DNA of 6,816 nucleotides from a virus. The number at the start of each line of letters is the position of its first letter. Position 1 is the stretch's first letter. The notes below the pieces were generated by a model. That model was not told the origin of the DNA. It worked only from the letters and a program-made list of their open reading frames with translations, and did no database searches. Where the stretch lies: UHGV virus genome UHGV-0373539. One strand, written 5' to 3'. Both the position numbers and the translations under genes were made by a program. This document shows, piece by piece, positions 1,533-5,843 of this stretch.

Positions 1533-1657
1533 CCCCGTTTAAATCGTCAAGCTATAAATCGTGGGGGCCCCTCTGGGGTTCCGATTTATTGCTTTACGAC
1601 TCTCCCCCCCAATAACCTTGTATCGGGTGATGGTTCACGTAGTGGGCCATCGCCCTG
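1533..1657 (+). promoter_or_regulatory. Minus-strand (complementary-strand) replication origin, Ff-like hairpins B/C region
   Basis: Extended similarity to the f1 origin as recalled from f1-ori phagemids. It includes a 33-nt stretch GGGTGATGGTTCACGTAGTGGGCCATCGCCCTG (1625-1657) that matches f1 exactly, and upstream CCCCGT..AAATCG..GGGTTCCGATTTA.TGCTTTACG similarity. The 33-mer folds as a hairpin (1625-1633 / 1647-1655). Confidence 0.7.
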
Positions 1658-1934: not shown

Positions 1935-2132
1935 CTAAACGTCTCCTTTCTTTTTAAGCTCTTTTATCATTTTCTTTTCTGCTAATTCTGTATAGTTTTC
2001 AATGACATAGTTAAGTAAATCTGTCCATGTGACCTGTACGCCTGTACTTGCACTAATCCTGATCGCAGTATCACTCAGGTTTTTCTTTTTCTCGGTGGTG
2101 ATACTGGCTGTTGTCCTAACTGGTTTTTTCAT
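1935..2132 (-). CDS. Hypothetical small basic protein (65 aa) encoded antisense in the intergenic region; possible ribbon-helix-helix-like DNA-binding regulator
   Basis: Minus-strand ORF MKKPVRTTASITTEKKKNLSDTAIRISASTGVQVTWTDLLNYVIENYTELAEKKMIKELKKKGDV. ATG at 2132-2130 has an AAAGG SD about 8 nt upstream on the minus strand. The 87-aa form in the ORF track starts at a TTG with no SD. Lys-rich; the strand / helix / G-x-T turn / helix pattern is loosely CopG/Arc-like (inference only). Confidence 0.4.
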   Translation of the reverse strand: MKKPVRTTASITTEKKKNLSDTAIRISASTGVQVTWTDLLNYVIENYTELAEKKMIKELKKKGDV

Positions 2133-2264
2133 TTTATGCCTTTGAAAAATATAAAGTTTCAACCGAAAACAGGTTTTTAAGCGTAATCTTATTGTCAATA
2201 GATGTAAAAATTTTTGTTGCGCACGTTATTTTTCACGCTATCATGCCTGCATTGGATTTCACCT

Positions 2265-2286
2265 GTATACGTGTATACACGTATAC
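2265..2286. repeat. Perfect 22-bp palindrome GTATACGTGTATACACGTATAC; candidate operator or 5'-leader hairpin for gene II
   Basis: The sequence equals its own reverse complement (checked base by base). It sits 6 nt upstream of the AAGGG SD of gene II, in the 171-bp region between the divergent minus-strand ORF and gene II. Confidence 0.6.
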
Positions 2287-2303
2287 ATCACTAAGGGATG
2301 CGT

Positions 2304-3338
2304 ATGATTGATTGGGTTACAGCCGTCTTGCCTTGTCTGCATGTGCCTGTTGATGCTGGTCGCGTCCTCTCTGTTGCGCCGGATGGCTCTGTAGAATGGG
2401 AATCAGTAAAGTTTTCCCGCGTTACTGGCTCCTTTGAAAGCTCCATCAGTGTACGTTCGCAGGGTTCTGACGGTAATGGGAAAGCCACTCATTTATACGT
2501 TGATGGTAACCCGTCAAAGTGGTTGCAGGGTCACAATATCGTTGGAAGCGACGATCTCAACGGCCTTATGATTGCTTTTTACGCTCGTATGTTGTCACTA
2601 CTCAACATACCTCACCATCTGGAATCGTATCGCCAGGTGCTTTCTGGTCAGTACGAGTTAAAGCGCGTTGACGTTAACTACATGTTTGAGCTTCCTACGC
2701 TCATTGATGTACGGTCATGGTTACATGCTGCTGAGTTCAAGGCTAAGACTCGCCACGGGCGCCCGGCAACTGCAAAGGGCACTCTGTACTTTGGTAAAAA
2801 TTCTCGCCGTTGGTCTATTAAGGCTTACAGCAAATATGATGAAGTTAATTGCGGGAAAAAAGCTCATGGCGTTCCCGAAGAAATTAAGAAAACTGGCCTT
2901 GTTGAATGGTCTAAAAATAAATTACGTCTAGAATTAACATTACGCGCATTGCAGCTTACTGATATTAATTTAAACTTTGCTAAAAACTGGTCTACTGAAA
3001 CTGCATATACTGTTTTTAAAGAATATATGGGGCGTATCGAAATGAGCGGAAATACTTTACTTACTGATACTCAAGTTATTAATTTACCGTCTGCGCTACG
3101 TATGACTTATGTGTGCTGGAAACAGGGTATTCGTGTAACCGATATGGTTTCTCGCGCCACTTATTTTCGTCACCGCAAGGCTTTAAAAGAATTCGGTATT
3201 GATATTGCTGTTACTGTTGATCGTGTTGATAATAGCAACGTTGTTCCGTTAATCCGTGTCTTAGAGGCTAAACCTGCCTCTATTCCTTCTCAATATGATA
3301 ATTTAATATTTTCATCTAATCGTGTATCAAGTTTCTAA
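2304..3338 (+). CDS. II: Gene II protein, rolling-circle replication initiator (nickase); alternative start ATG 2298
   Basis: ORF ends TAA 3336-3338. MIDWV.. start matches M13 pII MIDML.. and has SD AAGGG at 2293-2297 with 6-nt spacing; the ATG at 2298 abuts the SD. Motifs shared with M13 pII as recalled: KWLQGHNIVGSDDL (M13 KVLQGHNVFGTTDL) and NVVPLIRV (M13 NVVPLVRF). About 344 aa versus about 410 aa in Ff. Confidence 0.88.
   Translation: MIDWVTAVLPCLHVPVDAGRVLSVAPDGSVEWESVKFSRVTGSFESSISVRSQGSDGNGKATHLYVDGNPSKWLQGHNIVGSDDLNGLMIAFYARMLSLLNIPHHLESYRQVLSGQYELKRVDVNYMFELPTLIDVRSWLHAAEFKAKTRHGRPATAKGTLYFGKNSRRWSIKAYSKYDEVNCGKKAHGVPEEIKKTGLVEWSKNKLRLELTLRALQLTDINLNFAKNWSTETAYTVFKEYMGRIEMSGNTLLTDTQVINLPSALRMTYVCWKQGIRVTDMVSRATYFRHRKALKEFGIDIAVTVDRVDNSNVVPLIRVLEAKPASIPSQYDNLIFSSNRVSSF
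3027..3338 (+). CDS. X: Candidate gene X (in-frame internal restart within gene II, C-terminal ~100 aa); start uncertain
   Basis: By analogy with Ff, where pX is the C-terminal ~111 aa of pII. In-frame ATGs at 3027, 3042, 3102 and 3144; none has a strong SD. 3027 was chosen because it gives a size closest to Ff pX. Confidence 0.3.
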   Translation: MGRIEMSGNTLLTDTQVINLPSALRMTYVCWKQGIRVTDMVSRATYFRHRKALKEFGIDIAVTVDRVDNSNVVPLIRVLEAKPASIPSQYDNLIFSSNRVSSF

Positions 3339-3348
3339 GGGGTTTTAA

Positions 3349-3660
3349 ATGCACTCAGGTATTCTTATTCGTGGTCGTATTCTCGGTTCTCGCACTGCAA
3401 ACCGTGATAATAATTCGCCTCAACATATTTTAGGCGTTGGCATTCAGAAAGCTGACGGTTTTGGCGGTACGACTCAGGATGTTGAGCAGGTTAAAATCCC
3501 TGACCAGCTTGTGCAAAGCGGCGTTGTTAATCAGATTAACTCGCTTATTGGCAAACTTTGCGAAGTTCCGATTAATGTTCGTTCTTGGTCTATGAACGGC
3601 AAAAACGGCACTTCTTACACTCTGTCTTTTGATTCCGGTATTCAGGAGATTAAAAGCTGA
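3349..3660 (+). CDS. ORF in the gene V position (103 aa); putative ssDNA-binding protein by position only
   Basis: Only ORF in any frame between gene II and gene VII. Good SD AAGGGG at 3337-3342, 6 nt before the ATG. Protein MHSGILIRGRILGSRTANRDNNSPQHILGVGIQKADGFGGTTQDVEQVKIPDQLVQSGVVNQINSLIGKLCEVPINVRSWSMNGKNGTSYTLSFDSGIQEIKS. No similarity I can see to M13 gVp as recalled; at most a weak C-terminal resemblance to Pf3 gVp (VP.INV..NG...L.FD). Confidence 0.65.
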   Translation: MHSGILIRGRILGSRTANRDNNSPQHILGVGIQKADGFGGTTQDVEQVKIPDQLVQSGVVNQINSLIGKLCEVPINVRSWSMNGKNGTSYTLSFDSGIQEIKS

Positions 3661-4188: not shown

Positions 4189-5493
4189 GTGAAAAGAAAA
4201 ATAATAGCCATATCTTTATTTTTATATATCCCTTTGTCTAATGCTGATAATTGGGAGTCTATTACTAAAAGTTATTATACTGGCTTCGCTATGTCTAATA
4301 CTGTTGAATCAAAAGATCAGGATGGTAAAACAGTTCGTAAAGAGGTTATAACTCCGGCTGATTTAACTACCGCTTGCAATGATGCTAAAGCCTCTGCGCA
4401 AGATGTATTTAATAGTATTAAGCTAACATATTCTGGTATTTGGCCTGATTCTCAGTTTCGCCTTGTAACTGGTGATACCTGTGATTACAACGGCTCGCCT
4501 GGTGAAAAAACTGAAAGCTGGTCTATTCGCGCTCAGGTTGAAGGTGATATTCAGCGTACCGTTCCCGATGAAAAACCCGCAGAACAGACACCAGAAGAAA
4601 TCTGTGAGGCAAAACCTCCAATTGATAACACTTTTAATAATGTCTCTCGCGGTGAAGATGGCAATTATTATATTAACTATAATGGCTGCGAATATTCCGC
4701 TACTGGTGTAACTGTCTGTCAATCTGATGGAACTGTCTGTTCCTCCTCTGCTTGGAAGCCAACTGGTTACGTCCCCGAATCTGGAGAATCTCAATCATCT
4801 CCTGTTAACGGTGGTGGCTCTGGTGAAACTGGCGGCGAAACTGGCGGCGGTGAAACTGGCGGCGAAACAGGTGGCGGTTCTTCTGGCGGTGATTCCGGTG
4901 GATCTACTGGCGGTGGTTCTACTGGCGGCGGTTCCTCCGGTGGTTCCTCTGGCGGTTCTGGTAATTCTCTCACCAAAGAGGATGTAACCGCAGCTATTCA
5001 TGATGCCTCCCCTTCTATTGCTGATGCTGTAAAGGATTCTCTGACAGAAGAAAATGACCAGTACGACAATCAGAATCAAGCCGATGAACAATCCGCTAAA
5101 GCGTCTGCATCTGTCTCTAATGCTCTCTCAGATGGTATGCGCGGCGTTGGTAATTTCGTTGACGATCTTGGCGGTGAATCTTCTCAGTACGGTACTGGTA
5201 ATTCAGAAATGGATCTCTCTGTCAGCATGGCTAAAGGTCAACTTGGTATTGATCGCGAAGGTCATGGTTCTGCTTGGGAAGCCTTTTTAAGCGATGGTGC
5301 TTTACGTCCCTCCATTCCTACTGGTCATGGCTGTACTGATTTTGTCATGTTTCAGGGTTCTGTTTATCAGCTTGATATTGGCTGCGATAAATTAGGCGAT
5401 ATTAAGTCTGTATTATCTTGGGTTATGTATTGCCTTACCTTCTGGTATGTATTCCAGTCTGCTACTTCATTACTTCGTAAAGGTGAACAATAA
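4189..5493 (+). CDS. III: Gene III adsorption protein (pIII), GTG start
   Basis: 434-aa ORF starting at GTG (Ff gene III also starts with GTG). Signal peptide [19 protein letters not shown]. Internal segment [16 protein letters not shown]...[24 protein letters not shown] resembles the Ff N1 (TolA-binding) domain as recalled (ESCLAKPHTENSFTNV...YANYEGCLWNATGVVVCTGDETQC). Gly-rich linker follows; C-terminal ..[26 protein letters not shown].. resembles the Ff pIII C-terminal domain. Confidence 0.93.
4811..4962 (+). repeat. Glycine-rich linker of pIII encoded by imperfect tandem repeats (GGTGAAACTGGCGGC units, then GGT/GGC-TCT/TCC units)
   Basis: Protein [51 protein letters not shown]. Repeated GAAACTGGCGGC units at 4825-4860 are visible in the DNA. 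Confidence 0.85.
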
Positions 5494-5843
5494 TGCCAGC
5501 TTTATTAGGTATTCCGGCTTTAATTCGTTTCATAATGGGGCTTGTGCCTCTTGCTATTGGTTATTTTGCTAAGTTCTTAGGCAAAATTATTACCCGTAAT
5601 GGCTTGATGGCTGCTGCCTTAATTGGTGCGATCCTTTCATTTGTCACCTTAGCAATTCAGCTTTTAGGCGATGCTTTATCTTCTGCAATGGGCGGAATGC
5701 CTGCTGATTTTGGCAATTTAATGTCCTCTGTATTACCTGATGGCACAACAACTTGTATTACAGTAATTATGACTACAAGAATAGCGGTCTTTGTTTTCGA
5801 TATTAAAGATCGCTTACTCGGCATTGCCAATAAGGTAATTTGA
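5493..5843 (+). CDS. VI: Gene VI minor coat protein
   Basis: 116-aa hydrophobic protein [13 protein letters not shown].. resembling M13 pVI (MPVLLGIPLLLRF..., ..FIFDVK..) as recalled. ATG overlaps the gene III stop (TAATG). SD AAAGGTGA upstream. Confidence 0.92.

Follow-up and report, generated by a model that had tools for sequence, protein, structure and literature searches.

The window, a stretch of 6816 nt (UHGV virus genome UHGV-0373539) analysed here at its full length, is a complete circular inovirus genome. With phage I2-2 (Lineavirus I22, 6744 nt) it shares 95.4% identity, 99% of the length being covered, and with IKe and the PEar phages ~81-83%, in the structural half only. Among plasmid and E. 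coli records the best matches are 87-88% identical. Gene IV ends at 1415, and the region from there to gene II measures 882-888 nt, in line with the roughly 880 nt given in an earlier note on this DNA. The two values reflect a gene II start at 2298 or 2304, of which 2304, as in the I2-2 annotation, is more likely. Within this region the minus strand carries an open reading frame (ORF) of 65 aa, which is a real gene under purifying selection and a previously unannotated member of a known regulator type, as judged by its homology to short RstR alleles of the cholera phages. The genes at the locus are:

1935-2132, minus strand: rstR-like gene, 65 aa, probably of the ribbon-helix-helix type (ATG 2132->2130, stop 1937->1935; protein MKKPVRTT...KKKGDV)
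2139-2142 (2142->2139), minus strand: AAGG, Shine-Dalgarno-like sequence of the small gene located 6 nt from its ATG, read from the sequence
2293-2297, plus strand: Shine-Dalgarno sequence AAGGG of gene II, likely start ATG 2304 as in the I2-2 annotation
2304-3338 (start 2298/2304), plus strand: gene II, replication initiator (Pfam Phage_CRI 1e-77, G2P_X_C 2.3e-21; TIGR01629), presumed target of regulation
3349-3660, plus strand: gene V, single-stranded DNA-binding protein (Pfam Putative_G5P 3.8e-26), last gene of the replication module

The gene II product starts with MIDW in most relatives, and in I2-2 gene X is nested inside gene II. The I2-2 records hold ten annotated genes, all on the plus strand, and between genes IV and II only a "morphogenetic signal". 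A 2020 paper describes the region as intergenic in I2-2, IKe and M13 (PMC7307601). The accepted gene map of the I2-2 lineage, with all genes on one strand and an intergenic region at this place, is corrected by the present gene.

Conservation of the small gene

The length of the ORF alone is not significant, because antisense ORFs of 98-123 aa arise by chance elsewhere in the window. As the earlier note had described, the encoded protein is Lys-rich (13 Lys) and the ORF has its own Shine-Dalgarno-like sequence, which lies in a block conserved among relatives (ATGCCTTTGA). An 87-aa version with a TTG start (to 2198) was rejected, as the DNA preceding the ATG lacks conservation as a coding sequence and the database homologues are all 65-66 aa long.

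For related loci, 13 genomes were fetched and the ratio of non-synonymous to synonymous substitution rates (dN/dS, omega) was calculated by Nei-Gojobori. The frame is intact in 13/13 loci with a dN/dS of 0.06-0.21 (pairs with dS 0.3-2.4), while gene II shows ~0.05 in the same genomes. The other five frames of the same DNA contain 1-8 stops each, and omega exceeds 1 in 4/5 of them. The antisense frame rc1 has a value of 0.25, which we attribute to its third positions coinciding with those of the true frame. Conservation of the frame in related phages had been proposed in the earlier note as a check, with frameshifts or stops pointing to a chance ORF; this outcome is contradicted by the data.

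A database search returned 28 close homologues (78-95% identity, full-length, nearly all 65 aa) on contigs of 7.1-7.3 kb from E. coli, Citrobacter, Cronobacter, Enterobacter and Klebsiella. PHROG 2503 (65 positions, function unknown) matches the small protein over its full length with an E-value of 2.7e-16. A scan of genome contigs with the 65-aa protein yielded no confirmed relative.

In three of the closest genomes (L065, L069 and L070) dN of the small gene is about equal to dS or exceeds it, e.g. with 6 non-synonymous vs 0 synonymous differences. These differences look clustered in the C-terminal tail; the counts are too few for a case of diversifying selection. A 16.9-kb ENA contig (L066) holds two copies of the small gene ~1.65 kb apart with a truncated secretin ORF between them, which points to a rearranged multimer or else to an artefact of the assembly.

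The I2-2 reference record

The intergenic DNA of I2-2 is 95-97% identical to that of the window and has the same layout. Its reference nevertheless provides the only broken copy of the small gene: one extra T (CATAG-TTAAG -> CATAGTTTAAG) splits the frame into pieces of 44 aa and 46 aa, both unannotated. The same record shows five further single-base insertions in the intergenic region (six in all) and an additional G close to the gene V end (about 4440-4462 of the I2-2 record; window 3655-3660). The latter abolishes the shared stop, such that pV has 108 aa in the I2-2 reference vs 103 aa in the window and every relative. Since this record has the other insertions and, in gene V, an extra G that no relative shares, the frameshift is most likely an error of the reference sequence, judging from these comparisons. 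Such an error would then explain that the gene was left unannotated in I2-2.

Homology to short RstR alleles

Searches with family members using tblastn led to genes annotated rstR in CTXphi strain IB1617 and a pre-CTX phage, as well as to an "RstR-like" gene of V. anguillarum VAI1/VAI2. In pre-CTX and VAI2 the rstR gene is divergent from rstA-rstB. Read from an internal Met, the pre-CTX or 'environmental' RstR (GQ466611/KR063268) aligns to the family profile in hhalign with prob 99.1 (E 1.6e-18), and BLASTP against the window protein gives 38% identity over 56 aa (E 1e-11). The published rstR-6 primers encode MKKKYTSLRVS... and ...LIHKKTDLKR, which are the exact termini of a family member of 63 aa (P0283). 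Hence this member is RstR-6. Its match to the profile has prob 99.8 (E 1.1e-27), and BLASTP against the window protein gives 32% identity (E 8e-8). In the viral contigs searched, the rstR-6 primer had no exact match. The rstR-5 primers encode MDVSKTSL, and on sequence grounds RstR-5 probably belongs to the family, too. RstR-calc (59 aa, L079) was not counted as a member due to its weak profile match (prob 47).

Going by these alignments, the window protein is homologous, not merely analogous, to the short RstR alleles of CTXphi/pre-CTXphi. Both share a size class (63-65 aa, with RstR-6 at 63 aa; 32-38% identity for RstR-6 and the 'environmental' allele), and the short alleles are likewise divergent and directly upstream of the initiator, followed by a single-stranded DNA-binding gene. 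Their spacers also contain repeated 8-bp TG-N4-CA boxes. The earlier note had likened the layout to that of rstR and rstA. Its proposal of a regulator divergent from the initiator has gained from the homology to the short alleles and from the divergent pairing throughout the family, which suggest DNA binding and repression as the activities of the protein. The enterobacterial, plasmid-pilus-specific phage replication module is thereby linked to the rstR-rstA-rstB arrangement of CTXphi.

Differences concern the hosts of the short alleles, which are Vibrio, and the initiator, which is annotated RstA; other Vibrio-type loci that were scanned have Rep_trans and not G2P/CRI initiators. CTXphi-type phages integrate via XerCD. 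In contrast to the integrating, lysogenic short-RstR phages, the window genome is without a dif-like site and resembles the non-integrating I2-2. Cross-immunity with short-RstR phages is not expected, because the N-terminal strand and the box sequence differ. In lux assays the cloned rstR alleles, 5 and 6 among them, are each reported to repress specifically the reporter of their own ig-2 (rstA promoter) (PMC11509585, section 3.3, Fig. 3). While the function of RstR-6 was thus tested directly (PMC11509585), we infer that of the window protein.

This homology does not extend to all RstR proteins. The classical and El Tor alleles are helix-turn-helix proteins with a fold different from that of the short alleles. 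Their coding regions comprise 336 bp (classical) and 339 bp (El Tor), i.e. about 112 aa (PMC11509585). Classical RstR occupies the same genetic slot and presumably does the same job, namely allele-specific repression of the divergent initiator promoter (PMC11509585). Nevertheless a helix-turn-helix protein of ~112 aa compared with the window protein of 65 aa, predicted to form a strand and two long helices, represents analogy and not homology. A full-text literature search found no paper pairing RstR with ribbon-helix-helix. Our data suggest that several "RstR" alleles used for cholera-phage typing may be ribbon-helix-helix instead of helix-turn-helix proteins, and they would unify the short RstR alleles with an enterobacterial ribbon-helix-helix family.

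Predicted fold

The structure of the small protein was predicted using AlphaFold2 with an alignment of 54 sequences (pLDDT 92). It consists of an extended stretch (1-12), a helix (13-30), a short loop and a second helix (36-64), the appearance expected of a ribbon-helix-helix subunit that is modelled in the absence of its partner. The conservation pattern of the family agrees with an N-terminal strand followed by two helices. The earlier note had called the protein loosely ribbon-helix-helix-like, and the predicted strand-helix-helix order is in good agreement with that. Foldseek of the monomer model against PDB returned nothing meaningful (E >4), as expected since the model is a two-helix monomer.

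Natural tandem duplications of the domain with 122-149 aa exist in the family (P0157, P0163, P0173, P0176, P0199, P0211, P0227, P0237 and P0252), and they are similar to TraY. The model of P0176 (pLDDT 85) shows strand-helix-helix twice, the strands 14-20 and 76-82 being the only beta structure. Its top matches in BFVD are tandem "Ribbon-helix-helix domain"/"CopG domain" proteins (prob 1.00, TM 0.55/0.63, E ~0.01-0.1). In PDB it matches chains E and G of the F-plasmid relaxosome, which we take to be TraY (prob 0.92, TM 0.49/0.54, E 0.3).

In profile searches ParG 1p94 is the top PDB match, in register with an E-value of 0.063, and ParG PF09274 is the most recurrent Pfam match (16/54 members, best E 0.0041, below the gathering score). 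The window protein itself has no match in Pfam and NCBIfam, and no helix-turn-helix family appears at E up to 1. The profile search recommended in the earlier note was hence successful in so far as PHROG 2503 was found, while the ribbon-helix-helix families it had named stayed below threshold. Taken together, the models indicate that the small protein is a probable ribbon-helix-helix protein.

The predicted strand-helix-helix topology is common to MetJ, CopG, ParG and Arc. The operator of MetJ consists of tandem 8-bp met boxes, and CopG controls the rolling-circle initiator RepB. Tandem 8-bp palindromic boxes in the window recall the met-box layout, with no corepressor implied. Control of a rolling-circle initiator would be shared with CopG, whereas the window gene is divergent from its initiator and copG is co-transcribed with repB. 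The long C-terminal helix 36-64 and a WTD motif are particular to the window family when compared with curated ribbon-helix-helix families.

Promoters and candidate operator in the spacer

The spacer between the small gene and gene II (2133-2303) has a length of 171 bp and a GC content of ~0.34-0.36. It was described in the earlier note as a divergent, AT-rich spacer with a perfect palindrome, and the palindrome comprises 24 nt at 2264-2287. The following elements are proposed:

2180-2208, minus strand: candidate promoter of the small gene, -35 TTTACA (2208->2203), 17 nt, -10 TACGCT (2185->2180), chosen by eye
2217-2244, plus strand: candidate promoter of gene II, -35 TTGCGC (2217-2222), 16 nt, -10 TATCAT (2239-2244), chosen by eye
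2264-2287, no strand: candidate operator, a perfect 24-bp palindrome made up of three 8-bp boxes in tandem (TGTATACG, TGTATACA, CGTATACA)

Both hexamers of the putative small-gene promoter lie in blocks conserved among relatives (the -10 of L064 reads TAAGAT), and TTGC..TATNAT of the putative gene II promoter is kept in all relatives. A minus-strand TTGACA without a good -10, as pointed out in the earlier note, does exist, though its coordinates were off by one (2198->2193, not 2194-2199).

The boxes are located in the gene II leader at ~+13 to +36 relative to the promoter chosen by eye, just 5' of the Shine-Dalgarno sequence. Close relatives have 3-4 boxes with an 8-bp period, of which boxes 1 and 3 are best conserved; the array is not always a perfect palindrome. 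The spacers of distant members contain repeated TG-N4-CA boxes with inner bases that differ according to the N-terminal strand of the protein. The strand RKNLGVP goes along with the box GCTCACAA (complement of TTGTGAGC), RTTISI with TGAATTCA and RTTYNVT with TGAACTCA, while TGTATACA is found with RTTASIT, RTTMAI and YTSLRV. Boxes of the TGTATACA type occur together with both Rep_trans and G2P initiators. Hence the box type goes with the small protein rather than with the initiator. In 26 spacers 58 TGNNNNCA 8-mers were observed vs 11 expected from shuffling (~five-fold enriched), a statistic that is optimistic and indicative only because inspection of the data preceded the choice of motifs and many of the loci are related to each other.

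Proposed function

Based on this analysis, it is fairly likely that the small protein is an RstR-type repressor of gene II which controls copy number and immunity. The small gene and gene II would be transcribed divergently from back-to-back promoters in the 171-bp spacer. Dimers of the protein would bind the three tandem TGTATACA boxes between the putative gene II promoter and the ribosome-binding site, leading to less transcription of gene II and of those genes that follow it. In Ff, transcripts that begin at the gene II promoter extend into downstream genes. Less pII would cap the copy number of the replicative form and the phage output, and the carrier cell would become immune to incoming phages with the same operator type. 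For the window phage we infer binding at the boxes, repression of gene II as well as the effects on copy number and immunity.

The best match to E. coli dif in the window agrees at 17/28 positions, so a dif-like site was not found, and no recombinase is encoded. This speaks for control of an episome rather than for classical lysogeny. The earlier note had seen no support for lysogeny by integration and had preferred a regulator of replication or copy number to a lysogeny switch; both views accord with the genome, and such a regulator appears the likelier case. The protein and its 24-bp operator candidate would offer a testable handle on the copy number of episomal filamentous phages and on the exclusion of relatives.

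A wider generalization is conceivable, which we put forward only tentatively. The short RstR alleles and the enterobacterial family may constitute one ribbon-helix-helix class that spans two initiator types and reads an 8-bp TG-N4-CA code, in tandem or dispersed, determined by the N-terminal strand. An Ff-like coliphage that sheds chronically without integrating may use it as copy-number governor and homo-immunity determinant. If true, I2-2-type phages would not be purely 'constitutive' like Ff.

Several points weigh against repression of gene II by the small protein. Curated ribbon-helix-helix models were matched only below threshold, and the Foldseek E-values lie at 0.01-0.3. A scan of the spacer for the sigma-70 consensus and terminators gave nothing usable, and the promoter candidates are below threshold. 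To the optimistic box statistics comes that TGTATACA with at most one mismatch occurs 4 times genome-wide vs 2.98 expected, so that only the tandem clustering is unusual. Since the boxes lie downstream of the putative gene II -10 and ~55-80 bp upstream of the small-gene -35, autoregulation is left unexplained. Without a dif-like site the repressor has no obvious lysogenic role. Finally, the I2-2 frameshift, if real, would make the small gene dispensable for growth.

Alternative explanations

The small protein could be a regulator without the palindrome being its operator. The palindrome might instead form a hairpin in the gene II leader RNA for translational control, e.g. by pV, or represent a cruciform or initiator-binding element of the plus-strand origin. 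Its position in the predicted leader beside the Shine-Dalgarno sequence and a predicted 10-bp hairpin (-15.8 kcal/mol for the fold of 2250-2312) are consistent with the former, and both versions have precedents in Ff, where gene II is translationally repressed by pV and directly preceded by the plus-strand origin. However, the fold is not significant (z = -1.41), relatives keep hexamer boxes at an 8-bp period with a middle box that varies without compensating changes, and the same box is found in phages whose initiator is of the Rep_trans type and whose gene V equivalent is a different one. As an origin element, the palindrome is outperformed by the hairpin at 1884-1910, which is far better conserved and the stronger candidate. 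Jointly, these two versions are therefore regarded as unlikely. Rather improbable is also that the protein acts as a ribbon-helix-helix accessory of the rolling-circle initiator in the manner of TraY or NikA, bending origin DNA and aiding nicking by pII instead of or besides repression. The likeness of tandem members to the relaxosome chains of the F plasmid, the UniRef name 'Relaxosome protein TraY' of one member, the constant company of a nicking initiator and the adjoining invariant hairpin block, a possible origin, would all fit this role. Yet TraY-type relaxosome proteins are tandem, whereas the window protein is a single repeat without relaxase or oriT context, and one box type shared by two unrelated initiator families is in better agreement with control of promoters. 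By eye, boxes in other lineages overlap -35-like hexamers (TTGTAT/TTGCAT). Furthermore I2-2, if its reference is correct, grows with the gene broken, and the member RstR-6 was reported as a repressor of the rstA promoter (PMC11509585).

Two further possibilities have very little in their favour. Segregation of the episomal replicative form by a ParG-like centromere-binding protein is suggested by ParG being the only recurrent curated-family match and by the tandem short boxes, which recall ParG operators, these being likewise arrays of tandem short boxes. Considering that the matches are below threshold, that no partner ATPase of the ParA/ParF type is present in the 6.8-kb genome or related loci and that the CTXphi members are repressors, we deem it very improbable. 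That the frame is a chance ORF in T-rich origin-flanking DNA, or marks an antisense RNA only without a protein product, is scarcely credible at all. Minus-strand ORFs of this length do occur by chance, the I2-2 copy is frameshifted and unannotated, and the scan found no strong promoter. Against this stand the low dN/dS at high dS, the intact frame in all other relatives, a large family with conserved synteny, a confident fold prediction and homologues named RstR. Moreover the extra base at the end of I2-2 gene V, found in no relative, suggests reference errors.

Distribution and genomic context of the family

The family comprises 324 clusters in a profile search. An exhaustive search of 1.84 billion representatives resulted in 160 clusters at 50% identity with E up to 1e-3. 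Members are found in Vibrio phages, Dulem viruses, a 7.9-kb Salmonella plasmid, Klebsiella and Yersinia plasmids and many chromosomal prophages. Phage If1 (L003) carries an unannotated member of 67 aa (2489-2692) inside its "major intergenic region".

Of the 60 loci fetched, 57 have a divergent ORF whose length is 150 aa or more (350-640 aa in most) and whose start lies 70-720 bp upstream of the small gene. Among 24 representatives the initiator belongs to G2P/CRI in 16-17 cases and to Rep_trans in 7. Among the close relatives, one and the same unit, made up of the conserved block, small gene, gII and gV, is found attached to either of two structural modules that differ strongly from each other (L063-L074 vs window). 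Hence the small gene belongs to an exchangeable replication module, a clear case of modular recombination. Stassen and colleagues reportedly proposed "module evolution" for I2-2, and an exchangeable replication module fits this idea.

The first of these structural modules resembles that of I2-2/IKe and includes DUF5455 and a 429-aa secretin; in the second, the secretin has 410 aa and is accompanied by DUF2523 and a pIII of ~590 aa. Six of the Rep_trans loci (L011, L018, L022, L036, L059 and L062) apparently contain an extra frame between the boxes and the initiator on the initiator's strand. It begins with MxI(I/V)YFDY... and is of uncertain length; it was read by eye from the spacers, and the copy of L018 has no Pfam match. 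In If1, the stretch 725-2692 holds an IS200/IS605-type element with a Y1 transposase (Pfam Y1_Tnp 1.2e-27) beside ORF348. The latter is TnpB (OrfB_IS605 plus Cas12f1-like TNB), while the record says only 'homologous to eryA'.

Further elements of the intergenic region

Downstream of the small gene lies the conserved block mentioned above:

1866-1920, no strand: invariant non-coding block with hairpin 1884-1892/1902-1910, candidate plus-strand origin or terminator

Ten genomes, in which the dS of the genes is >1, share a core of ~30 nt (ACGTGCAGTGTATGTAATACTGCACGTTTGT) at 100% identity. The hairpin consists of a 9-bp stem and an invariant loop of 9 nt. Moreover a direct repeat with the motif CTGCACG(A/T)3GTCTCA is found at 1811-1829 and 1900-1918. 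The Rfam gathering scan of the window detected no RNA family. The block occupies the position that belongs in CTXphi to ig-1, which holds the plus-strand origin. We consider the block at ~1866-1920 a better candidate for the plus-strand origin than the palindrome.

Further towards gene IV, window 1545-1657 is ~85% identical to f1/M13 5625-5737, a segment that we take to be the minus-strand origin hairpins. In the I2-2 reference, 77 nt from the middle of this segment (window about 1570-1646) are missing, so that I2-2 as published lacks this part of an otherwise f1-like segment in a region called intergenic (PMC7307601). The f1-like segment is present in hundreds of plasmid records, too.

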